A stretch of 64,000 nt of DNA, taken from the NCBI RefSeq assembly GCF_055900595.2, contig NZ_CM148325.1; one strand, written 5' to 3'. Made by a program: the position numbers and the translations under genes. Each line of letters opens with the position of its first letter. The first letter of the stretch is position 1. Below are positions 2,993 through 53,278 of this stretch, in pieces. The notes beneath the pieces were generated by a model, which was not told the DNA's origin, did no database searches, and was given only the letters and a program-made list of their open reading frames with translations.

Positions 2993-4033
2993 TTGAACAT
3001 AGACACTCGCGAAATCACTCTGGAGCCAGCAGACAACGCACGTCTGTTGAGCCTGTGCGGCCCGTTTGATGACAACATCAAACAACTCGAACGCCGTCTC
3101 GGCATCGAAATCAATCGCCGCGATAATCATTTTAAACTGACCGGCCGTCCGATTTGCGTCACCGCTGCGGCAGACATTCTGCGTAGCCTGTATGTCGATA
3201 CTGCCCCGATGCGCGGTCAGATTCAGGATATCGAGCCGGAACAGATCCACCTTGCGATTAAAGAAGCGCGCGTGCTGGAACAAAGTGCGGAGAGCGTGCC
3301 GGAGTATGGCAAAGCGGTCAATATCAAGACCAAACGCGGTGTAATTAAACCGCGCACGCCAAACCAGGCGCAGTACATCGCCAATATTCTCGACCATGAC
3401 ATTACCTTCGGCGTTGGCCCGGCGGGTACGGGTAAAACCTACCTGGCAGTGGCTGCGGCAGTTGATGCCCTGGAGCGTCAGGAAATTCGCCGTATTCTGC
3501 TGACTCGTCCGGCGGTAGAAGCCGGTGAGAAACTGGGCTTCCTGCCTGGCGATTTAAGCCAGAAAGTGGACCCGTATCTGCGCCCGCTGTATGACGCGCT
3601 GTTTGAAATGTTGGGCTTTGAGAAAGTCGAGAAGCTGATTGAGCGCAACGTTATTGAAGTCGCACCACTGGCCTATATGCGTGGTCGTACGTTGAACGAC
3701 GCGTTTATCATTCTTGATGAGAGCCAGAACACCACCATCGAACAGATGAAGATGTTCCTGACTCGTATCGGTTTTAACTCAAAAGCGGTTATTACCGGCG
3801 ATGTCACGCAGATCGACTTACCGCGTAATACTAAATCAGGTTTACGTCACGCTATCGAAGTGTTAGCCGATGTCGAAGAGATCAGCTTTAACTTCTTCCA
3901 CAGCGAAGACGTGGTTCGTCACCCGGTGGTAGCGCGTATCGTTAACGCTTATGAAGCCTGGGAAGAAGCCGAACAAAAACGAAAAGCGGCGCTGGCAGCA
4001 GAACGCAAGCGCGAAGAACAGGAACAAAAATGA
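2993..4033 (+). CDS. ybeZ: PhoH-like ATPase
   Basis: Walker [12 protein letters not shown] at 2993 is preceded by aagagga (SD) and gives 346 aa, which is the length I recall; the in-frame ATG at 2954 (359 aa) lacks an SD. Confidence 0.85.
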
Positions 4034-4497
4034 GTCAGGTGATCCTCGATTTACAACTGGCATGTGAAGATAATTCCGGGTTACCGGAAGAGAGCCAGTT
4101 TCAGACATGGCTGAATGCGGTGATCCCGCAGTTTCAGGAAGAATCGGAAGTGACTATTCGCGTGGTCGATACCGCCGAAAGCCACAGTCTCAATCTGACC
4201 TATCGCGGTAAGGATAAGCCGACCAACGTGCTCTCCTTCCCGTTTGAAGTACCGCCTGGCATGGAGATGTCGCTGCTGGGCGATCTGGTTATCTGCCGTC
4301 AGGTGGTTGAGAAGGAAGCACAGGAGCAAGGCAAACCACTGGAAGCGCACTGGGCGCATATGGTGGTGCACGGCAGTCTGCATTTGTTAGGTTACGATCA
4401 CATCGAAGACGACGAAGCAGAAGAAATGGAAGCCCTCGAAACAGAGATTATGCTTGCTCTGGGCTATGAGGATCCGTACATTGCCGAGAAAGAATAA
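4030..4497 (+). CDS. ybeY: Endoribonuclease YbeY (16S rRNA 3'-end maturation factor)
   Basis: 155 aa; metal-binding motif [11 protein letters not shown]; start overlaps the ybeZ stop (ATGA). Confidence 0.95.
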
Positions 4498-4586
4498 TTT
4501 GCCAGGCATTTGACTGGCAGACGTCCCCGCCGTTGGTGATTAACGACGGCGTTTTGATTAACTAACATGAGAACCCATACGACGCC

Positions 4587-5465
4587 ATGAGCGACGACAA
4601 TTCACACAGTAGTGACACGATAAGCAACAAGAAGGGATTTTTCTCCCTGTTACTCAGCCAACTTTTCCACGGTGAACCGAAAAACCGTGACGAACTGCTG
4701 GCGCTGATCCGTGATTCCGGGCAGAACGACCTTATCGACGAAGATACGCGCGATATGCTCGAAGGGGTGATGGACATCGCAGACCAACGCGTTCGCGACA
4801 TCATGATCCCCCGCTCCCAGATGATTACCCTGAAACGCAACCAGACGCTGGACGAATGCCTTGATGTCATCATCGAGTCCGCCCACTCACGTTTCCCGGT
4901 GATTAGCGAAGACAAAGATCACATTGAAGGGATTCTGATGGCGAAAGACTTGCTGCCGTTTATGCGCAGCGATGCTGAAGCCTTCAGCATGGACAAAGTG
5001 TTACGTCAGGCGGTTGTCGTTCCTGAAAGTAAGCGCGTAGACCGGATGCTGAAAGAGTTTCGCTCTCAGCGTTACCACATGGCGATCGTCATTGACGAAT
5101 TCGGTGGGGTTTCCGGTCTGGTGACCATTGAAGATATCCTGGAGCTGATTGTTGGTGAGATTGAAGACGAGTATGACGAAGAAGATGATATCGACTTCCG
5201 TCAGCTGAGTCGTCATACCTGGACCGTGCGCGCACTGGCTTCCATCGAAGATTTCAACGAAGCCTTCGGCACCCACTTTAGCGATGAAGAAGTCGACACC
5301 ATCGGAGGTCTGGTGATGCAGGCATTTGGGCATCTCCCGGCGCGTGGCGAAACCATCGACATCGACGGTTACCAGTTCAAAGTGGCGATGGCTGACAGTC
5401 GGCGTATTATTCAGGTTCATGTCAAAATCCCGGATGACTCACCCCAGCCAAAGCTGGATGAATAA
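4587..5465 (+). CDS. corC: CBS-domain Mg/Co efflux-associated protein CorC
   Basis: 292 aa; CBS pair plus CorC/HlyC C-terminal domain; synteny ybeZ-ybeY-corC-lnt. Confidence 0.9.
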
Positions 5466-5489
5466 AACCGAAACTGGATAGATAACTAC

Positions 5490-7028
5490 ATGGCTTTTGC
5501 CTCATTAATTGAACGCCAGCGCATTCGCCTGCTGCTGGCGTTATTATTCGGTGCCTGCGGAACGCTGGCCTTCTCTCCTTACGACGTCTGGCCTGCGGCG
5601 ATTATTTCGCTGATGGGGCTTCAGGCGCTGACCTTTAACCGCCGTCCACTCCAGTCTGCCGCTATTGGCTTTTGCTGGGGATTTGGCCTGTTTGGCAGCG
5701 GTATTAACTGGGTCTATGTCAGCATCGCGACCTTTGGCGGAATGCCTGGCCCAGTTAACATCTTCCTGGTGGTGCTGCTGGCAGCGTATTTGTCGCTGTA
5801 TACCGGACTGTTTGCTGGCGTGCTGTCGCGTCTGTGGCCGAAAACCACCTGGCTACGCGTGGCGATTGCCGCCCCTGCTCTCTGGCAAGTGACCGAGTTT
5901 CTGCGCGGTTGGGTGCTGACTGGCTTCCCGTGGTTGCAGTTCGGCTATAGCCAGATTGACGGTCCGTTAAAAGGACTGGCACCGATAATGGGCGTGGAAG
6001 CCATTAACTTCCTGCTGATGATGGTAAGCGGCCTGCTGGCACTGGCGTTGGTCAAACGCAACTGGCGTCCGCTGGTGGTGGCCGTCGTGCTGTTTGCCCT
6101 TCCCTTCCCGCTACGTTACATCCAGTGGTTTACCCCGCAACCGGAGAAAACCATTCAGGTATCGATGGTTCAGGGCGACATTCCGCAATCGCTGAAGTGG
6201 GATGAAGGCCAGCTTCTCAATACGCTGAAGATTTACTACAACGCAACGGCACCGCTGATGGGCAAGTCATCGCTGATTATCTGGCCGGAGTCGGCGATAA
6301 CCGACCTGGAAATTAATCAGCAGCCGTTCCTCAAAGCACTGGACGGTGAGTTGCGTGATAAAGGTAGCTCGCTGGTCACCGGGATTGTCGACGCGCGTCT
6401 CAATAAGCAGAACCGCTACGATACCTACAACACCATCATCACGCTGGGTAAAGGTGCACCGTATAGCTACGAATCAGCCGATCGCTATAACAAAAACCAT
6501 CTGGTGCCGTTTGGCGAGTTTGTCCCGCTGGAGTCGATTCTGCGTCCGTTAGCACCGTTCTTTGACCTGCCGATGTCGTCATTCAGCCGTGGACCATATA
6601 TCCAACCACCGCTGTCGGTAAATGGTATTGAGCTTACTGCGGCTATTTGCTACGAGATCATTCTCGGCGAGCAAGTGCGCGATAACTTCCGCCCGGATAC
6701 CGACTATCTGCTGACTATCTCCAACGATGCGTGGTTTGGTAAGTCTATTGGCCCATGGCAGCACTTTCAGATGGCGCGAATGCGTGCGCTGGAGCTGGCG
6801 CGCCCGCTGCTGCGTAGCACCAATAATGGCATCACGGCGGTGATTGGTCCGCAGGGTGAGATTCAGGCGATGATCCCGCAATTCACCCGCGAGGTGTTGA
6901 CCACTAATGTGACGCCGACTACCGGACTCACACCGTACGCACGTACCGGCAACTGGCCGCTGTGGGTGCTGACGGCACTGTTTGGTTTTGCCGCTGTGCT
7001 GATGAGACTGCGAGCACGTCAACGTTAA
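5490..7028 (+). CDS. lnt: Apolipoprotein N-acyltransferase
   Basis: 512 aa; multi-TM N-terminus followed by a carbon-nitrogen hydrolase domain; synteny. Confidence 0.95.
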
Positions 7029-9491: not shown

Positions 9492-10400
9492 ATGCAATTA
9501 CGTAAACCTGCCACAGCAATCCTGGCCCTGGCGCTTTCCGCAGGACTGGCACAGGCAGATGACGCCGCCCCGGCAGCGGGCAGTACGCTGGACAAAATCG
9601 CCAAAAACGGTGTGATTGTCGTCGGTCACCGTGAATCTTCAGTACCTTTCTCTTATTACGACAATCAGCAAAAAGTGGTGGGTTACTCGCAGGATTACTC
9701 CAACGCCATTGTTGAAGCAGTGAAAAAGAAACTCAACAAACCGGACTTGCAGGTGAAACTGATTCCGATCACCTCACAAAACCGTATTCCTCTGCTGCAA
9801 AACGGCACTTTCGATTTTGAATGTGGTTCTACCACCAACAACGTCGAACGCCAAAAACAGGCGGCTTTCTCTGACACTATTTTCGTGGTCGGTACGCGCC
9901 TGCTGACCAAAAAGGGCGGCGATATCAAAGATTTTGCCGACCTGAAAGGCAAAGCCGTAGTCGTTACTTCCGGCACTACCTCTGAAGTTTTGCTCAACAA
10001 ACTGAATGAAGAGCAAAAAATGAATATGCGCATCATCAGCGCCAAAGATCACGGTGACTCTTTCCGCACCCTGGAAAGCGGTCGTGCCGTTGCCTTTATG
10101 ATGGATGACGCTCTGTTAGCCGGTGAGCGAGCGAAAGCGAAGAAACCAGACAACTGGGAAATCGTCGGCAAGCCGCAGTCTCAGGAAGCCTACGGTTGCA
10201 TGTTGCGTAAAGACGATCCGCAGTTCAAAAAGCTGATGGATGACACTATCGCTCAGGTGCAGACCTCCGGTGAAGCGGAAAAATGGTTTGATAAGTGGTT
10301 CAAAAATCCAATTCCGCCGAAAAACCTGAACATGAATTTCGAACTGTCGGACGAAATGAAAGCACTGTTCAAAGAACCGAATGACAAGGCACTGAACTAA
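9492..10400 (+). CDS. gltI: Glutamate/aspartate ABC transporter periplasmic binding protein
   Basis: 302 aa from the ATG at 9492 (SD aggag at 9481..9485); signal peptide MQLRKPATAILALALSAGLAQA; the ORF-track start at 9417 is an upstream in-frame extension. Confidence 0.9.
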   Translation: MQLRKPATAILALALSAGLAQADDAAPAAGSTLDKIAKNGVIVVGHRESSVPFSYYDNQQKVVGYSQDYSNAIVEAVKKKLNKPDLQVKLIPITSQNRIPLLQNGTFDFECGSTTNNVERQKQAAFSDTIFVVGTRLLTKKGGDIKDFADLKGKAVVVTSGTTSEVLLNKLNEEQKMNMRIISAKDHGDSFRTLESGRAVAFMMDDALLAGERAKAKKPDNWEIVGKPQSQEAYGCMLRKDDPQFKKLMDDTIAQVQTSGEAEKWFDKWFKNPIPPKNLNMNFELSDEMKALFKEPNDKALN

Positions 10401-10556
10401 TTACAAGAACCAGGGGCGGAAATTCCAGCCCTCTCGATTGTTACGTAGCACGGACAGACTATACGCCTGATGGTCGTTCCCCATCGGGCCTGAAAACCGC
10501 AATACGCTGGGTAACAATCTTCGAGGGTAGCAGTTAACGCTGCTACCCTCTTTTTT
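10401..10556 (+). ncRNA. sroC: SroC-like sRNA processed from the gltI-gltJ intergenic region
   Basis: Intergenic segment immediately 3' of gltI ending in a strong Rho-independent terminator (gagggtagcagttaacgctgctaccctc + tttttt at 10523..10556); position matches the known origin of SroC in the gltIJKL mRNA. The 5' end is not determinable from sequence. Confidence 0.5.
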
Positions 10557-10569
10557 CTGGAGTAGATTT

Positions 10570-13845: not shown

Positions 13846-15516
13846 ATGGATAATGCAGAACTCGCCATTGGTATCGATCTCGGTACTACCAATAGTTTAA
13901 TTGCCGTCTGGAAAGACGGTGCCGCGCAATTAATTCCAAATAAGTTCGGTGAATATTTAACACCATCCATAATTAGCATGGATGAAAATAATCATATTTT
14001 AGTCGGAAAACCCGCTGTATCACGGCGCACTTCGCATCCGGATAAAACGGCAGCGTTATTTAAACGTGCAATGGGCAGTAATACCAACTGGCGGTTAGGC
14101 AGCGACACATTTAACGCGCCTGAACTGTCCTCTTTGGTATTACGCTCATTAAAAGAAGATGCCGAAGAATTTCTGCAACGTCCGATTAAAGATGTGGTGA
14201 TCTCCGTTCCGGCTTATTTCAGCGATGAACAACGCAAGCATACCCGTTTAGCAGCGGAGTTAGCCGGGTTAAATGCGGTACGCTTAATTAATGAACCCAC
14301 AGCAGCTGCGATGGCATATGGCCTGCATACGCAACAAAATACCCGCTCGCTGGTTTTTGATCTCGGTGGCGGCACGTTTGACGTCACGGTGCTCGAATAC
14401 GCCACGCCGGTGATTGAAGTTCACGCCTCCGCTGGCGACAACTTTCTTGGCGGCGAAGATTTTACTCATATGCTGGTGGATGAAGTTTTAAAACGCGCCG
14501 CAGTGGCTAAAAACATGCTCAACGAAAGTGAGCTGGCAGCCCTGTACACCAGCGTGGAAGCGGCAAAATGCAGCAATCAATTACCGCTGCAAATTAGCTG
14601 GCAGTATCAGGAAGAAACGCGTGAGTGCGAATTTTACGAGAACGAACTGGAAGATTTGTGGTTGCCGCTGCTCAATCGCTTGCGAGTGCCGATTGAACAG
14701 GCGTTGCGCGATGCACGTCTGAAGCCAAGTCAAATCGACAGTCTGGTGCTGGTTGGCGGCGCATCACAAATGCCGCTGGTGCAGCGAATCGCCGTGCGTC
14801 TGTTTGGCAAATTACCGTATCAAAGTTACGACCCGAGTACTATTGTCGCGCTGGGCGCAGCGATCCAGGCCGCCTGCCGCTTACGCAGCGAAGACATTGA
14901 AGAAGTGATCCTCACCGATATTTGCCCCTACTCCTTAGGTGTTGAAGTTAACCGCCAGGGCGTTTCCGGCATTTTCTCACCGATTATTGAACGAAACACC
15001 ACTGTACCGGTGTCGCGTGTAGAAACTTACTCGACCATGCACCCGGAACAGGATTCAATTACGGTTAACGTCTATCAGGGAGAAAACCACAAAGTTAAAA
15101 ATAACATTCTGGTAGAATCCTTCGATGTGCCGTTGAAGAAAACCGGGGCTTATCAGTCGATTGATATTCGCTTTAGTTATGATATCAACGGGTTGCTTGA
15201 AGTTGACGTGCTTCTGGAAGACGGCAGCGTTAAGTCCAGAGTCATTAACCACAGTCCTGTAACATTGAGCGCACAGCAGATTGAAGAGAGTCGGACGCGG
15301 TTATCCGCATTGAAAATTTATCCGCGCGATATGCTCATCAACCGCACCTTTAAGGCCAAACTGGAAGAGTTGTGGGCGCGGGCGCTGGGTGACGAGCGAG
15401 AAGAGATCGGCCGGGTGATCACCGATTTTGATGCGGCGTTGCAGTCAAACGATATGGCCCGCGTCGATGAAGTTCGGCGACGGGCGAGCGATTATTTGGC
15501 TATTGAGATCCCTTAA
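13846..15516 (+). CDS. hscC: Hsp70-family chaperone HscC (Hsc62)
   Basis: 556 aa; Hsp70 ATPase motif IDLGTTNS near the N-terminus, DLGGGTFD, substrate-binding domain. Confidence 0.95.
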   Translation: MDNAELAIGIDLGTTNSLIAVWKDGAAQLIPNKFGEYLTPSIISMDENNHILVGKPAVSRRTSHPDKTAALFKRAMGSNTNWRLGSDTFNAPELSSLVLRSLKEDAEEFLQRPIKDVVISVPAYFSDEQRKHTRLAAELAGLNAVRLINEPTAAAMAYGLHTQQNTRSLVFDLGGGTFDVTVLEYATPVIEVHASAGDNFLGGEDFTHMLVDEVLKRAAVAKNMLNESELAALYTSVEAAKCSNQLPLQISWQYQEETRECEFYENELEDLWLPLLNRLRVPIEQALRDARLKPSQIDSLVLVGGASQMPLVQRIAVRLFGKLPYQSYDPSTIVALGAAIQAACRLRSEDIEEVILTDICPYSLGVEVNRQGVSGIFSPIIERNTTVPVSRVETYSTMHPEQDSITVNVYQGENHKVKNNILVESFDVPLKKTGAYQSIDIRFSYDINGLLEVDVLLEDGSVKSRVINHSPVTLSAQQIEESRTRLSALKIYPRDMLINRTFKAKLEELWARALGDEREEIGRVITDFDAALQSNDMARVDEVRRRASDYLAIEIP

Positions 15517-15520
15517 ACAC

Positions 15521-15562
15521 GGCTGCCGGATGCGGCATAAACGCTGCATTCGGCATCGGCGC
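15521..15562. repeat. REP-like palindromic element between hscC and djlC
   Basis: gctgccggatgcggcataaacgctgcattcggcatcggcgc resembles the REP consensus (gccggatgcg...); extragenic between convergent genes. Confidence 0.5.
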
Positions 15563-15575
15563 AAAAAACACATCC

Positions 15576-17027
15576 TCAGCTAAACAACATCGCGATTTTT
15601 CCGAGAGCATAACCTATCACCAGCACCGTTAAGCTGATTTTGATAATGCTGGTAATGCTCTGTGGTTTTTCATCCTCATCATTTTTTTCTTCGTGGTTTT
15701 CAGGTGTTGGCTCATCGACATCTTCATCCTCCGGCTCGAGTTTCACTTTCGTCAACAGCATCCGCGTGATAATGGCCTCTAATGGATGAGCATCTCCACC
15801 TTCCAGCCTTGTATTAAGACGGGCCAGCATCTCTTGTTTCGGGAACGCTTCCAGCACAACCTGTTCCGCTACCCGATACAAATCCAGTAACGGTGAATCT
15901 TGTTCTGTCTCGCTACCGACTCTCGATTTCCACCATGCCCATGTTTTGCGCTTGAAGAATAACGACTCAATAAACGATTGACCTAACGGCGATAATTTTC
16001 CGCTATGTAAAATTTCCGCCCATAACAGCCTCGTCCGGGCGCTCTCACCAGGAACATATTTCAGCGGCTTACCTTGCGCATCAACCATGCTTCGCGCTTC
16101 GATAACCATCACTAACAGCGCGAAGTAATCCGGGCAATGTTGCGCACTCCACTGCAGTAATAAATTATCGGCTTGTGTAGATGGATAACTTTCCCAGTAA
16201 CCACAGAGATCGGCAAGCATGCTTTCACCCTCGCCGCAGTATAACCGTTGCGCACACTGGTAATATCGGGCATCTTCACTTTCTGGTTCTTCCGTTTGCC
16301 ACTGTTGCGCTACAGAAATGAGTTCCGCCATACCTGTTTGCACCGAGCTATACCAGCGCAACAATTTGCGATGCAACTTCGCATCATCGGGAATGAACCA
16401 CGGACCTTCCATCGCCAAAAACGCAGTGACATAGTCAGGGTGATAACGGCAGCAGCGTTCCAATGCGAAGTAATACTCAACAGTCTGGTTCTGCAACGCG
16501 ACGGGATATTCCAGAAGGCTTAGAAAATCGAAACAATCCCCGGCCTGAATGGCCTCAAGAAAAGCCTCCCGTTCTTCCTCGTCCATGCCTTCACTTTCAT
16601 TAAATGAATGCCAGTTCAAACGCTCTGCCAGCAAAGAAGCACAATTTAATGAAAGATATCGCGCTTCTGTAGCGATTGCACACAGCGGCCAGCGTAATTG
16701 ATCGACATCCTCCATGTTCCAGGTATTTAATTGCTGAATAAATTTCTGCCAGGCGGAGGGCTGAAAACGATCGCTTTCCGAAGCCAGTAAGGTTCTGAAC
16801 GCTTTCAGTGCTTCGTGCTCTTCTGCAAGATTTTTCTCGTCATCAGCATTTTTTTCGTCCGGATTGACAGCCAGTCGCAGCGCCTCTTCATAGGCCTGGC
16901 GTAATGCTTTAAACCCCTGCGGATCGGTTTCGGGATGACACAACGGTAAGCGAGCAAGATAAGCCTGGCGGATACTGTCTATTTGCGTCGTGCTTTCAAT
17001 TTCGAGGATTTGCCAACATGTTTTCAT
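15576..17027 (-). CDS. djlC: J-domain-like co-chaperone of HscC with C-terminal membrane anchor
   Basis: 483 aa; N-terminus [11 protein letters not shown]...LCHPETDP (J-domain-like, HPE tripeptide); C-terminal hydrophobic tail [26 protein letters not shown]; ATG overlaps the ybeU stop (ATGA). Confidence 0.9.
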
Positions 17028-17731
17028 AGGTCGCTCACATCCTTAAGCGTTACCGGGCATTCAGGCTGGACAATTAATGGCTGCCAGGGAAGCGTGGCAT
17101 AGAAACGATCGCTTCCCGCTGCCAACTCCTCGAACATCCGACTCCCGGCGTTATCGTATTTGTACAGGGTTAGCGCCTCGCGTAGCGAAGCGTTGTCTTC
17201 ACACTGGGAAGATTGCCAGTAGAGACGTCCTAATGAATAGGCGGCAAAATAGTGAATCCAGCTGTGATAATAATGGTGAGCTCGTACATAAACGCGCGAT
17301 TGCAGCCATAAACTCTCTTCTTCCGTCAGCCAATTGTTGAGCACACCGACCCGCGATAAAAACCCCATCCGCACATAATCCCAGGCTTTGATTCCCCCTT
17401 CCCCACAACACATAGCGGTTTGGGCAACGAATTGGGTATAAATCAACCCTCTCTCCGAGCCGCCAGCAATTAATGTTTTCCACTCTTCAGGGGAAGAGCG
17501 ATGCCATGTCAGATATAAGCCAGCTAAATCATTGGCATGACCATCATCGGTCATCTGATAAATAGTCTGAATTAAATCATCACGATTATTTATTCCCCAG
17601 GATGATGAGAGATCGAATTCTTTTATCCCAGTATACATTTTTGGCGAGTCATGCGCTGGCTTGCAACCCTGATTAAGTATTTCCATGGGTGCAGAAAGCG
17701 CAAAAAGAAGATATTGTTCTTCCTTATTCAT
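17024..17731 (-). CDS. ybeU: DUF1266-family protein
   Basis: 235 aa; paralogous to the downstream ybeR product (shared blocks FALSAPMEI / [41 protein letters not shown]). Confidence 0.85.
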
Positions 17732-17831
17732 TTGTTAATAATCCCTTAAGTGCATTAACTGACTACTTTTTTATTATCGATGAGTATAAACTTGACGTTT
17801 TCAAAATAAAAGAAAATAGAAGTATTCATGC

Positions 17832-18386
17832 ATGAATAAAAAATTAATATATATATTCGCAATATTTATAGTTGCGGCAATTACCTGTATTAGCCAACCC
17901 AACAAAACGACCCTGCGCGATAAAGCTATGGCGAATTATGTCTTTGATTATTTAAGCTCACCGGGCAGTCTTCCGTTTACCACGGCAGCAACAGAGCTTT
18001 CCGCCATTCATGGTCACTCAACGTCGCAATATAGACTTGGCGAATTTTATCTTCATGGTAGCGATGGTAAGCCTCTGGATTATACAAAGGCGAGATACTG
18101 GTATGAGCAATCAGCGGAACAGGAAAATCCACGCGCGCAAAGTCAACTGGGATGGATCTACCTGAAAGGTTTGGGAGTCAATCCCGATACCCGTAAAGCA
18201 ATTCTCTGGCATAAGGAAGCAGCTGAACAAGGGCATGTTCATGCACAATACACGTTGGGTTTGATCTACAGAAACGGCACGGGCATTAGCACCAACAATT
18301 ATGAAGCTCGCAAATGGTTAGAACTGGCGGCAGAGCAACATTATAAAAATGCGGAAAGATTACTTGCAGAGCTTCCCGCACATTAA
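17832..18386 (+). CDS. ybeT: Sel1-repeat (TPR-like) protein
   Basis: 184 aa; N-terminal signal/TM segment followed by Sel1-type repeats ([30 protein letters not shown]). Confidence 0.85.
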
Positions 18387-18395
18387 CGTCGACTT

Positions 18396-19823
18396 TCACC
18401 CGAACAGATGAAGTATTTTCCCTATCAAACCGGCAAAGATAAAAATATAGAAAATAATTTTAATGATGCCCAGACAGCCCGGCCCACCATCGTCAACGGG
18501 CATTGGCTGCGGTTGCGGCTCCGGCTTGACGGTTTGTTGCCCGGCAAAATTCGCCGACTGAATTAATAATCGTCGAATTATTAATGCGTCCAGAGGACAA
18601 CGATCTTCTGCATCAAGGCGGGCGACGATCGGCATCAATGATTCTTCTGTCGGTTGGCTGGTCTTCACTAATTGTTTAGCAACTAAATATAATGGCCATA
18701 AGGGATGTTCTGTATCACGCGTGAGTGAGATTCGCGGCTTACGCCCTTTGTGCAAAACCATCTCAACCAGAGAACGCCCCAGCGCAGAGAGTTTCTCATC
18801 GCTGAGTATTTCGTATAATTGAAAGCGCGTACGCGCACTGTCGCCAGGAACATAAAGTAACGGTTTCCCCTGATCGTTAACCAGTTCACGTGCTTCAATC
18901 ATCATCACGACTAACGGGTAATAATCGACCCGATGCTGACGGCACCATTGCAACATTAATACATCTGCCTGGGTCGAGGGAGACTCGCGCCAGAAGTCAC
19001 AAAGTTCTGCCAGCAAGCTTTCGCCTTCTCCACAATAGACGCGTTGCGCGTATTCATAATAACGCGCATCTTCATTATCAGGTTCAGTTTCCCGCCATGA
19101 CCGGGCGTAGTCCAGGAGTTCGGGTATTCCCAGGCGGACTGCGCTATACCAGCACAGTAAATTTCTGTGCAGTTTTACATCATCGGGGATAATTACCGCA
19201 CGATGTTGCGATAAATATAATGTCAGCCATTCTGGATGCGATGACCAAATCCGCGCGAACATTTGGTAAAAATCAATGGTTTCATTTTGCACGGCAACAG
19301 GCAGATGCAGAATGGTCTGGAAGTTAAAAACATTCCCCTTCGCAATGGCATATAAAAAGGATTCCAGTTCTTCTTCGTCTATTTCCCCGGTGTTTTCCTC
19401 CTGTCGCCACCGCAATCTTTCTGCTAATAAAGCCACGCACTCGAAGGATAAATGGGCAGTGTTCATGGCTATTGTGCACAGTGACCAGCGTAATTCATCA
19501 ATATCTTCCATCGAGCAATAATTTAATTGCTGAATGAATCGCTGCCAGGCAGAGGGCAGAAAACGTTCGCTATCAGAGGCGAGTAACGCACGAAAGGCGA
19601 ACAGTATTTCATGTTCTGCAACTTCATGTTCTTCTGGTTGCCAAACAGATTTAGCAGGCGACTGCGCAATCCGTAGCGCGTCCTCATACGCCTGACGAAG
19701 TTGTTTAAAACCCTGCGGATCGGTTTCTGGATGAAAGGACGGTAACAGCGCCAGATAAGCGCGGCGGATAATATCGACTTCAGTCGTTTCCTCTATTTCG
19801 AGAATCTTCCAGCAATTTTTCAT
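18396..19823 (-). CDS. djlB: J-domain-like co-chaperone with C-terminal membrane anchor (DjlC paralog)
   Basis: 475 aa; N-terminus [36 protein letters not shown]; C-terminal hydrophobic tail; ATG overlaps the ybeR stop. Confidence 0.9.
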
Positions 19824-20527
19824 AGGTCGCTCATATCCTTAAGCGTTTCCGGGCATGCAGAATAGTAAGCCAATGGTTGCCAGGACAAGGTAGGGTAATA
19901 CGCATCATCACTGGCAAATAATTGATAAAACATATCATTGCCGGAATCGTCGTATTCTTTACGCGCTAAAAATTCACGTAATAACTGAAGATTATCATCT
20001 TCGGGAGACTGCCAATATTGCCGACCAAAGGTATAACCGGCAAAGTATTGCTGCCAGTTACTATAATAACGTAGCGCCCGTAGATGAATGCGCGACTGGA
20101 TCCATAGACTTTCTTCTTCGCTCAACCAGTTATTAAGTACGCCCATTCGGCTTAAAAAACCCATCCGGACATAATCCCAGGCTTTGATTCCCCCTTCGCC
20201 ACAGCATTCGGCGGTGCTGGCGACAAATTGCGCATAAGCCTGACCTTGCTCATTTAGTTCAGCAAGATAATCACGCCATTCACATGGAGAATAACGAAAC
20301 CAGCGGTGATAAAGCCCTGCCAACCGAGCGGCATGACCGTTATCGATCATTCGGTGAATTGTACGCAGCAGGTCATCACGGTCATCAATTCCCCATGAGG
20401 AAGAAAGGTCAAAAAAGCATGTACCTAAATACATTTTGGGGGATGAATGCGAAGGTAAACAGCATTCATTGCGTATTTCCATCGGAGTGGAAAGTGCAAA
20501 CAATATTTTTTGCGACTCCATGTCCAT
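19820..20527 (-). CDS. ybeR: DUF1266-family protein (YbeU paralog)
   Basis: 235 aa from the ATG at 20527 ([18 protein letters not shown]); the ORF track extends 12 codons further upstream. Confidence 0.85.
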
Positions 20528-20690
20528 ATAATTTATCCTTAAACATTCATTTAATGAATACAAACTACATTGCGAGACTCAGTTATTTATACTTTTCTGA
20601 CGCAACATAATACGCATAAAATAAGGCTTACGCAAAAATGGAATACATAAAAATATAATATGTTTTATCTACAACCATAAGGAAATGATA

Positions 20691-21668
20691 ATGATTTTTA
20701 CGTCAAGTTGCTGCGATAATTTATCAATAGATGAGATTATCGAACGTGCTGAAAAAGGCGATTGCGAGGCTCAATATATTGTTGGGTTTTATTATAATCG
20801 CGATAGCGCAATTGACTCTCCGGACGACGAAAAGGCCTTTTACTGGCTGAAGCTGGCCGCTGAGCAAGGTCATTGTGAAGCACAATATTCCTTAGGGCAA
20901 AAGTATACCGAGGATAAAAGCCGTCATAAAGATAATGGGCAAGCCATCTTTTGGCTGAAAAAAGCTGCCCTACAAGGCCATACTTTCGCTTCCAACGCCC
21001 TTGGCTGGATACTGGATCGTGGAGAAGACCCCAACTATAAAGAAGCGGTTGCCTGGTATCAGATAGCCGCGGAGAGCGGAATGTCTTATGCGCAAAATAA
21101 TCTTGGGTGGATGTACAGAAATGGCAACGGAGTCACACAAGATTATGCGCTGGCATTTTTCTGGTACAAACAAGCTGCATTGCAAGGCCATAGTTACGCA
21201 CAAGACAATCTGGCCGATCTTTATGAAGACGGTAAAGGTGTTGCCCAAAACAAAGCTCTTGCCGCATTCTGGTATTTGAAAAGCGCACAGCAAGGTAATC
21301 GGCACGCTCAATTTCAAATTGCGTGGGATTATAACGCTGGCGAAGGGGTTGACCAGGACTATAAGCAAGCAATGTACTGGTATCTGAAGGCTGCCGCTCA
21401 GGAAAGCGTCGGCGCTTACGTTAACATCGGCTATATGTATAAACACGGTCAAGGCGTTGAGAAGGATTATCAGGCCGCCTTTGAATGGTTTACGAAAGCC
21501 GCTGAATGCGATAATGCCACTGCCTGGTATAACCTTGCCATTATGTATCATTACGGAGAAGGAAGACCTGTCGATCTCCGACAGGCTCTCGATCTGTATC
21601 GTAAAGTTCAGTCATCCGGTACCAGGGATGTCAGTCAAAAAATCCGTGAGATTGAAGATTTACTGTAG
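20691..21668 (+). CDS. ybeQ: Sel1-repeat protein
   Basis: 325 aa from the ATG at 20691 (SD aagga, 7 nt spacing); multiple Sel1 repeats (AQYSLGQKY, AQNNLGWMYRNGNGV, AQDNLADLYEDGKGV and others). Confidence 0.85.
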   Translation: MIFTSSCCDNLSIDEIIERAEKGDCEAQYIVGFYYNRDSAIDSPDDEKAFYWLKLAAEQGHCEAQYSLGQKYTEDKSRHKDNGQAIFWLKKAALQGHTFASNALGWILDRGEDPNYKEAVAWYQIAAESGMSYAQNNLGWMYRNGNGVTQDYALAFFWYKQAALQGHSYAQDNLADLYEDGKGVAQNKALAAFWYLKSAQQGNRHAQFQIAWDYNAGEGVDQDYKQAMYWYLKAAAQESVGAYVNIGYMYKHGQGVEKDYQAAFEWFTKAAECDNATAWYNLAIMYHYGEGRPVDLRQALDLYRKVQSSGTRDVSQKIREIEDLL

Positions 21669-39694: not shown

Positions 39695-39726
39695 CAAAAA
39701 AAACCCGCTGATTAAGCGGGTTTTGA
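39695..39726. terminator. Bidirectional intrinsic terminator between convergent crcB and cspE
   Basis: aaaaaaaa-cccgctgattaagcggg-tttt hairpin with flanking A/T runs. Confidence 0.8.
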
Positions 39727-39743
39727 ATTCTTGCTGACGTATC

Positions 39744-39953
39744 TTACAGAGCGATTACGTTTGCAGCAGAAGGGCCTTTGGCACCGTTAGTGATTTCGAA
39801 CTCTACGCGCTGACCTTCAGCAAGAGTTTTAAAACCATTAGTCTGGATTGCAGAGAAGTGTACGAACACGTCTTTGCTGCCGTCTTCCGGAGTAATGAAA
39901 CCGAATCCTTTGGACTCATTAAACCACTTAACGTTACCTTTAATCTTAGACAT
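39744..39953 (-). CDS. cspE: Cold-shock-domain protein CspE
   Basis: 69 aa from the ATG at 39953: [20 protein letters not shown] with RNP1/RNP2 motifs; the ORF track extends further upstream. Confidence 0.95.
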
Positions 39954-40127
39954 CAAAATTACCTTTACATGAAAAATAGACACAAATGCTGTGTCGGTTA
40001 CCAGTACACCAATTGTGGTACGCTTTGTCCAGTGCAACTTTACTAAAAAGTGATAAAAGTCGCGTTATTTTTGATGTTAATTATTTTAGTCATTGATTTT
40101 AAAGAAGTTACTAAAATTTCATTTGTC

Positions 40128-53049: not shown

Positions 53050-53196
53050 TCCTCTGATTTACAAAAGACGCTAATTCGTCTTCCATAAACTATGACGATT
53101 AAGATTTATACATAATGCGCTGCATTGAGGAATTCCCTGAATGTGACGCAAATCACTTCAAAGAGTGAGCAACAGTCAGTATCATCATGTGAGTTA

Positions 53197-53230
53197 AACC
53201 CTCGCCGCCTGACGGTGAGGGTTTTCTTTT
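53197..53230 (+). terminator. Candidate intrinsic terminator between rna and rnk
   Basis: aaccctcgccgcc / ggtgagggtt stem followed by ttttctttt. Confidence 0.5.
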
Positions 53231-53278
53231 GGGTATGTTTATCTGCGACACTCGCAGTACCGACGACATGGAGTAAAA

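Follow-up and report, generated by a model that had tools for sequence, protein, structure and literature searches.

In the summary of Kluck et al. 2002 given in PMC8215388, the third Hsp70 system of E. coli is made up of HscC (Hsc62) and two J-proteins, DjlC (Hsc56, YbeV) and DjlB (YbeS). As far as that account goes, HscC does not depend on GrpE, DjlB and DjlC carry the motif HPE and not HPD, the HscC ATPase of E. coli K-12 is stimulated by DjlC alone, each Djl protein has a tail anchor, with membrane insertion reported for DjlC, and cells become sensitive to Cd2+ and UV on loss of hscC or of djlB together with djlC. HPE is accepted in the literature as functional with HscC, and in growing cells none of the three proteins reaches a detectable level. 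Of the three types of bacterial Hsp70, HscC is the one about which least is understood, with its clients and its part in cell physiology at issue since 2002. In this work, we describe the locus encoding this system in the window, a stretch of 64,000 nucleotides (nt) of contig NZ_CM148325.1 (assembly GCF_055900595.2), where hscC is followed, between positions 13,846 and 21,668, by two genes for J-proteins, two for proteins of the DUF1266 family and two for Sel1-repeat proteins.

As such, the locus belongs to the annotated biology of E. coli K-12. The open reading frames (ORFs) of the window were checked against the RefSeq annotation of a 97%-identical E. coli locus, and the seven ORFs were confirmed at the coordinates given in a preliminary description made from the sequence alone; their RefSeq names are hscC, djlC, ybeU, ybeT, djlB, ybeR and ybeQ, the flanks being rihA on one side and ybeL-leuS on the other. 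RefSeq names and literature agree that this is the HscC/DjlB/DjlC system, as that description had recognized. It had also regarded the function of the DUF1266 partners as an open matter, which is a fair account of the searchable literature: one paper mentions DUF1266, no role for YbeU or YbeR is to be found there, and reviews treat HscC/DjlB/DjlC as a two-part system.

Published work thus knows two kinds of component, and HPE J-proteins such as DjlB and DjlC are said to lack other domains. In contrast to this picture, we find the link between DUF1266 and Djl to be just as tight as that between Djl and HscC. What appears to be new, at the level of gene sequence and order, is the strict, order-independent and cross-genus association of one clade of DUF1266 proteins with HPE/NPE Djl proteins and HscC. 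We think it rather probable that HscC, Djl and DUF1266 form one functional unit, in which DUF1266 is an obligate partner of Djl and the tandem-duplicated pairs share a single HscC. If this is true, a component may have escaped earlier work done with just HscC and DjlC, or with strains deleted for djlB and djlC alone; YbeU and YbeR would offer a direct way to HscC clients; and a first functional context would be available for DUF1266, a domain family of about 1500 sequence clusters without a solved structural relative.

Conserved linkage of DUF1266, djl and hscC genes

Evidence for a three-part system comes from gene neighborhoods. A genome scan seeded by DUF1266, with one genome per species, yielded 50 loci, from about 43 Pseudomonas species, several Escherichia species, Klebsiella spallanzanii, Pragia and Leminorella; in 44 of the 50 the order is DUF1266, djl and a convergent hscC. 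Counting only genes with enough flanking DNA, djl lies directly downstream of 52 of 52 YbeU-like DUF1266 genes. A reverse scan of metagenomes, seeded with an alignment of Djl N-termini, found DUF1266 directly upstream of 89 of 89 Djl genes, the sole Djl genes without it being located at contig edges. HscC is the convergent neighbor in 39 of 41 and in 16 of 16 testable loci of the two scans.

Both DUF1266 genes of the window end in GAC CTA TGA, and the ATG of the following djl overlaps this end by four bases (context cctATGAaa), as the preliminary description had noted for the two units; the same 4-nt overlap (offset -3) is kept in almost all of the approximately 60 DUF1266-djl pairs collected, those of Pseudomonas and Budviciaceae included. 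DUF1266 and djl thus look like a translationally coupled operon pair.

More distant representatives from metagenomes show the same arrangement, the HPE J domain always starting at the DUF1266 stop. In still more distant DUF1266 members (profile E about 1e-21 and 1e-17) the operon order becomes Hsp70, Djl-like, DUF1266. In these reordered, co-directional operons (loci L144:1018-5696 and L145:1098-5654) the Djl-like proteins, of 717-728 amino acids (aa), have Pfam TPR matches, lack any hydrophobic segment, as soluble proteins do, and carry NPE in place of HPE/HPD. That the three genes stay together through a change of gene order is the strongest comparative argument for their products acting together.

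The edge of the linked clade is marked by a distant DUF1266 member (L057) which adjoins a beta-helix/TPR protein, with no Hsp70. Beyond it lies a much larger family: a profile search of 1.84 billion representative proteins, where a word-index protein search had reached close relatives only, matched 1474 clusters, many of them of long proteins with signal peptides, TPR regions, cell-wall-type domains or two DUF1266 copies. The preliminary description had proposed that DUF1266 genes occurring independently of djl and hscC in other genomes would tell against the association. For YbeU-like genes this is practically never the case, djl being present in 52 of 52 and 93 of 94 instances; the wider Pfam family, however, does occur alone.

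Genes of cyclic di-GMP (c-di-GMP) metabolism flank the trio in two unrelated lineages, as a PAS-GGDEF-EAL gene in L019:15163-18519 and a GGDEF gene in L052:141-536, which may be a coincidence. A search for natural DUF1266-Djl fusions among 264 proteins returned only a partial E. coli sequence with parts of both (P0117), along with fused gene models.

Properties of the proteins and duplication of the gene pair

HscC is a full-length Hsp70 (556 aa) distinct from both DnaK and HscA, as an HscC-type member should be: its NCBIfam matches to DnaK/HscA-type models score 379-387 bits (DnaK E=2e-115), far below the equivalog cut-offs of those families. DjlC matches the Pfam DnaJ model only weakly (E=0.017, residues 4-47) and features HPE instead of HPD; the extended motif HPExxPxGF is invariant in 16 diverse Djl homologues. 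A single C-terminal hydrophobic segment, at residues 457-483 of DjlC and 446-475 of DjlB, gives both proteins the layout of tail-anchored proteins, and no such segment is found in YbeU, YbeR or YbeQ. Outside Escherichia, Salmonella and Klebsiella, Djl proteins are about 900 aa long (for instance L019:10693-13383 and L007:10711-13422); their HPE J domain and the 300-400 residues after it are shared with DjlC, and their C-terminal end is a multi-span DUF805 membrane domain. The enterobacterial Djl proteins have been shortened and have one tail anchor instead.

YbeU matches Pfam DUF1266 (PF06889) over model positions 2-175 of 175, with E=2.7e-44. Its AlphaFold 2 model is confident, with a predicted local distance difference test score (pLDDT) of 93.7 and a predicted template modelling score (pTM) of 0.91, and describes an all-alpha protein of 12 helices, with no strands of 3 or more residues. 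Apart from two gene models that are fused or contaminant, a Foldseek search of this model against AFDB50 returned only DUF1266 proteins, nothing meaningful was obtained when PDB sequences were searched with DjlC or the DUF1266 profile, and NCBIfam and PADLOC scans had no matches for Djl or DUF1266; the fold predicted for YbeU is thus one without a solved structural relative. Residues W45, L53, G64, H65, W117, D118, R121, L125, R127, E139, W158, G168, W172 and W216 are conserved throughout the family, and about 20 more positions are conserved only in the Djl-linked clade, which makes these latter candidate contact sites.

Several database entries related to these proteins deserve caution. A 627-aa E. 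coli model in the AlphaFold Database (AFDB), A0A2X3M2D5, named 'Hsc56 co-chaperone of HscC', looks like a fused gene model; so does the 932-aa 'Trichuris' protein A0A077ZGN2, 92% identical to YbeU and probably a bacterial contamination. The end of a 'Paenibacillus sp. USDA918EY' contig (L006:9728-10388) encodes a protein 95% identical to E. coli YbeU, most likely through contamination or chimeric assembly.

A physical DUF1266:Djl complex, and the role we assign to it, are what we infer from these data. A model of YbeU joined to DjlC in one chain, YbeU-(GGGGS)8-DjlC(1-435), reached a pTM of 0.75, with the linker below pLDDT 50; by an arithmetic estimate, a YbeU left unplaced would cap the pTM of the fusion near 0.56. 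The predicted model therefore points indirectly to a complex.

The preliminary description had proposed that DjlC and DjlB, and likewise YbeU and YbeR, are paralogues, and pairwise alignment fully supports it: the Djl proteins are 51% identical over 453 aa (E=1e-157), the DUF1266 proteins 60% identical across all 235 aa without a gap (E=1e-106). The DNA itself shows three blocks, of 150-235 nt and 73-77% identical, which recur as direct repeats at a spacing of exactly 2796 nt. Related genomes help to define the repeated unit. In Salmonella (L060) the order is ybeL, ybeQ, DUF1266-djl, a 12-nt gap, DUF1266-djl and a convergent hscC, and ybeT is absent; K. spallanzanii has a single DUF1266-djl pair and no Sel1 gene at the locus. 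Neighbor-joining trees of DUF1266 and of the N-terminal 330 residues of Djl are congruent: YbeU/DjlC and YbeR/DjlB form clades, both with a Salmonella member, the pair of Klebsiella belongs with YbeR/DjlB, and the single-copy pairs of Pragia, Leminorella and Pseudomonas fall outside both. Given the congruent trees and the Salmonella and Klebsiella layouts, it follows that a two-gene unit was duplicated in an ancestor shared by these Enterobacteriaceae, its partners having diverged jointly since. Constant spacing of the paralogous units and congruent trees are both present, as in a tandem duplication, and, judged by sequence comparison, the duplicated unit is the DUF1266-djl pair, of two genes and not three.

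Such a duplication occurred independently elsewhere. In a 1.9-Mb replicon (AP023055.1, L055:2409-9470) two DUF1266-djl units lie in tandem and share a single HscC gene as neighbor; the first Djl copy (3164-5785) lacks the J domain, starting only behind it, and yet it has a DUF1266 gene of its own, with the 4-nt overlap. Escherichia sp. MOD1-EC7003 (L002:3648-5003) features a third, broken Djl-like frame (93 + 344 aa) between ybeL and ybeQ, with no DUF1266 in front, which may be the remnant of another copy. In Salmonella, a 412-aa ORF (L060:11951-13189) with no NCBIfam match and no Pfam match on record separates hscC from rihA and has no counterpart in the window.

In the mechanism we propose, HscC would be the ATP-driven Hsp70 and Djl its dedicated J-type co-chaperone, anchored, in these lineages, in the inner membrane. 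The DUF1266 protein, made from a shared mRNA directly before Djl, would most likely be an obligate subunit that binds Djl outside the J domain, in its TPR-like part, and that either selects the client or tunes the recruitment of HscC by Djl. Tandem duplication of DUF1266-djl in the ancestor of Escherichia, Salmonella and Klebsiella produced ybeU-djlC and ybeR-djlB, whose two heterodimers would have co-diverged, plausibly towards different clients, while sharing one HscC; ybeQ and ybeT joined the locus later.

Layout of the locus, Sel1 genes and variation in E. coli

The features of the locus are collected in Table 1. The preliminary description had spoken of two convergent units, which the coordinates contradict: ybeT is divergent from ybeU-djlC and ybeQ from ybeR-djlB, while the convergent pair is hscC/djlC. 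The RefSeq start of ybeR corresponds to window position 20527, and its ORF can be extended to a TTG at 20563. The palindrome gccggatgcggc...gcattcggcatcggcgc between hscC and djlC (15520-15575) is presumed to resemble repetitive extragenic palindromic (REP) elements. Promoter and terminator scans of the sequence performed no better than on shuffled controls, and were not used. Elsewhere in the window, Rfam matches above the gathering score are the sroC small RNA (10396-10558, +), the cspA thermoregulator (39696-40054, -) and the rnk leader (53125-53233, +).

Table 1. Features of the hscC-ybeQ region in window coordinates, with the ratio of nonsynonymous to synonymous substitution rates (dN/dS) of the genes relative to strain MRE162
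Feature	Position	Strand	Basis or remark	dN/dS
hscC, specialised Hsp70, 556 aa	13846..15516	+	ORF, RefSeq name; convergent with djlC	0.04
hscC/djlC spacer, 59 nt, presumed REP-like palindromic element	15520..15575	.	sequence gccggatgcggc...gcattcggcatcggcgc	
djlC, J-domain protein, 483 aa; HPE motif, TPR-like helical cytosolic domain, acidic linker, C-terminal tail anchor	15576..17027	-		0.10
ybeU, DUF1266 protein, 235 aa, first gene of ybeU-djlC operon	17024..17731	-	Pfam; stop overlaps djlC start (ATGA)	0.12
AT-rich divergent control region ybeU/ybeT	17732..17831	.	GC ~0.40-0.43 vs ~0.50 in flanks	
ybeT, Sel1-repeat protein, 184 aa, N-terminal hydrophobic signal or anchor	17832..18386	+	Pfam, hydrophobicity	0.14
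djlB, djlC paralogue, 475 aa, HPE J domain and tail anchor	18396..19823	-	ORF, RefSeq, alignment	0.15
ybeR, DUF1266 paralogue of ybeU, 235 aa	19820..20527	-	stop overlaps djlB start (ATGA)	0.13
AT-rich divergent region ybeR/ybeQ	20528..20684	.	GC 0.38 within 20400-20999	
ybeQ, cytoplasmic Sel1-repeat protein, 327 aa	20685..21668	+	Pfam; RefSeq start 6 nt later	0.10
Flanking genes				0-0.04

The Sel1 genes have a different history. Each pair was initially seen as part of a three-gene module comprising Sel1, DUF1266 and Djl proteins; both YbeT and YbeQ do carry Sel1 repeats, 3 in YbeT and 8 in YbeQ (E<=0.0022; 7 at E<=0.001) by Pfam, but Sel1 is not part of the duplicated unit, Salmonella being devoid of ybeT and other lineages of any Sel1 gene at the locus. 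The two proteins are alike at the level of the Sel1 repeats only, with 31-38% identity, a best E of 2e-20 and several alternative registers. YbeT has a hydrophobic segment at residues 1-24 and YbeQ none, and the two are therefore not equivalent copies; the Sel1 repeats of YbeT are probably in the periplasm, away from the cytosolic parts of the system. YbeT orthologues (at least 72% identity) are found only in Escherichia, the next matches being generic Sel1 proteins at 43% identity or less. ybeQ is present in Escherichia and Salmonella only, and absent from the loci of K. spallanzanii, Budviciaceae and Pseudomonas; no Sel1 gene of either kind was found at the locus in K. spallanzanii, Pragia, Leminorella, about 43 Pseudomonas species or the metagenome relatives. 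By this distribution, the Sel1 genes are lineage-specific later additions and not core parts. An origin of ybeT as a recent offshoot of ybeQ was considered and rejected, because their identity is lower than in the older paralogue pairs.

The flanking leuS gene, 95-99.5% identical to that of all E. coli genomes, identifies the window as E. coli. Comparison with strain MRE162 indicates that the seven genes are under purifying selection, with a looser constraint than in their neighbors (Table 1). Synonymous divergence (dS) is 0.06-0.38 in the block and 0.14-0.25 in the flanks, which argues against a foreign origin; this was rejected, despite a slightly low intergenic GC content. Among 5426 complete E. 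coli genomes, 3660 carry at least 80% of the block, 4448 carry some of it and about 980 none: the block is dispensable in many E. coli. Specific losses could be traced in two strains. In E. coli EM20-18-50 (L141) an IS1 stands in place of hscC through ybeQ, with 38 nt of hscC left, while in the blood isolate E. coli AF23 (L142) djlB, ybeR and the 5' part of ybeQ are deleted. As for regulation, overexpression of SlyA has been reported to raise ybeT 4.1-fold and the ybeU-hscD (djlC) operon 2.8-fold, both belonging to the H-NS regulon (SlyA/H-NS regulon paper), and in an hns mutant of enteroaggregative E. coli (EAEC) 042 a DUF1266 gene is up 308-fold.

Competing explanations and known systems

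Several observations weigh against a three-part machine in which DUF1266 is a subunit of Djl. The wider DUF1266 family is present in secreted and multidomain proteins without any Hsp70, so the domain must have an activity of its own which that reading leaves unexplained. Leminorella grimontii (L007) has a DUF1266-djl pair, and the 10 kb downstream of it showed no HscC homologue; the block is missing from about 18% of complete E. coli genomes and incomplete in about 15%. The loci kept by the scans are mostly from Enterobacteriaceae and Pseudomonas, the complex is deduced from one pTM value of an artificial single-chain fusion, modeled with 19 paired sequences, and a client or an inhibitor role for DUF1266 would agree with the same linkage data.

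Of these two roles, that of a dedicated client, which HscC and Djl would remodel or activate as HscA and HscB do IscU, DUF1266 being the bearer of the actual activity, strikes us as unlikely, though less so than the others considered here. It accounts for the linkage just as a shared machine does, single-client specialised Hsp70s are established (HscA-HscB-IscU; review), and both the autonomy of DUF1266 in many architectures without Hsp70 and its conserved polar and aromatic set (W45, H65, W117, D118, R121, R127, E139, W158, G168, W172, W216) would suit a protein with its own ligand-binding or catalytic site. A product made 1:1 by translational coupling would, however, be unusual for the client of a catalytic chaperone, and the compact, confident model of YbeU (pLDDT 93.7) is unlike that of a folding-deficient protein. 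A specific inhibitor or gatekeeper of Djl, comparable to CbpM, which blocks the CbpA J domain, seems to us quite improbable, in spite of the precedent of a small co-operonic protein specific to one J-protein (CbpA/CbpM; review), of the co-production of DUF1266 and Djl through a conserved overlap and of a fusion model compatible with a complex; the DUF1266 gene precedes djl, whereas cbpM comes after cbpA. The J-less Djl of L055, which still has its coupled DUF1266 gene, speaks mildly against client and inhibitor alike, because each depends on the J domain; it suits binding to a scaffold better than J-dependent delivery.

Two further explanations concern the block as a whole. That a Sel1, DUF1266 and Djl module was duplicated entire, with the Sel1 protein as an integral partner, is very unlikely in our judgment. 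In Escherichia each pair does adjoin a divergent Sel1 gene, the 2796-nt period spans ybeT, SlyA and H-NS act on ybeT and ybeU-djlC together, and ybeQ stays beside ybeR in Salmonella; but the Salmonella pairs lie 12 nt apart without ybeT, no Sel1 gene occurs at the Klebsiella, Budviciaceae, Pseudomonas and metagenome loci, YbeT is restricted to Escherichia, the Djl and DUF1266 duplicates, though older, are more alike than YbeT and YbeQ with their 31-38% repeat-level identity, and the Sel1 domain of YbeT, behind an N-terminal signal or anchor, probably lies in the periplasm, YbeU, YbeR and YbeQ having no hydrophobic segment. We give hardly any credence to a mobile accessory or conflict system, such as anti-phage defence, whose variable presence and duplications would result from an arms race. 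Variable presence in E. coli (67% full, about 15% part, about 18% none), H-NS silencing of the locus, dN/dS above that of flanking genes and independent duplications would all be in line with it. Yet HscC, DjlC, DjlB, YbeU and YbeR have no PADLOC match, the chromosomal position between housekeeping genes is fixed, the Pseudomonas neighbors are ordinary (dusC, a c-di-GMP enzyme), dS like that of the flanks gives no sign of foreign origin, and in one strain the block was lost through replacement by IS1. The Sel1 proteins gave only marginal PADLOC matches to the PtuA model, which HMMER did not confirm as a domain.

A broader form of the three-part reading has, in our view, a little less than an even chance. 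HscC-type systems would be three-component throughout bacteria, with DUF1266 as the obligate Djl subunit setting the targets of HscC, and repeated duplication of the pair, in Enterobacteriaceae and in L055, would multiply specificities. The conserved His/Asp/Arg/Glu/Trp set, common to secreted DUF1266 proteins, would hint at a defined ligand, bound or modified, possibly related to the cell envelope.

Among the closest known systems are TPR-plus-J-domain co-chaperones such as P58IPK/DNAJC3. DjlA is similarly a J-protein anchored in the inner membrane which brings an Hsp70 to the membrane; in contrast to DjlB and DjlC, it has an N-terminal anchor, an HPD motif, DnaK as its Hsp70 and no DUF1266 partner. 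The CbpA-CbpM pair differs in its reversed gene order and in the lack of homology between the small proteins; moreover, CbpM binds the J domain, whereas a Djl without J domain keeps its DUF1266 partner. The HscA-HscB-IscU system resembles the present one in that the genes of a specialised Hsp70, of its exclusive J-protein and of a third, small protein are clustered, and in that the Hsp70 is independent of a nucleotide exchange factor. DUF1266, however, has no relation to IscU in sequence or fold, and it is DUF1266 that appears to be translationally coupled to its J-protein.

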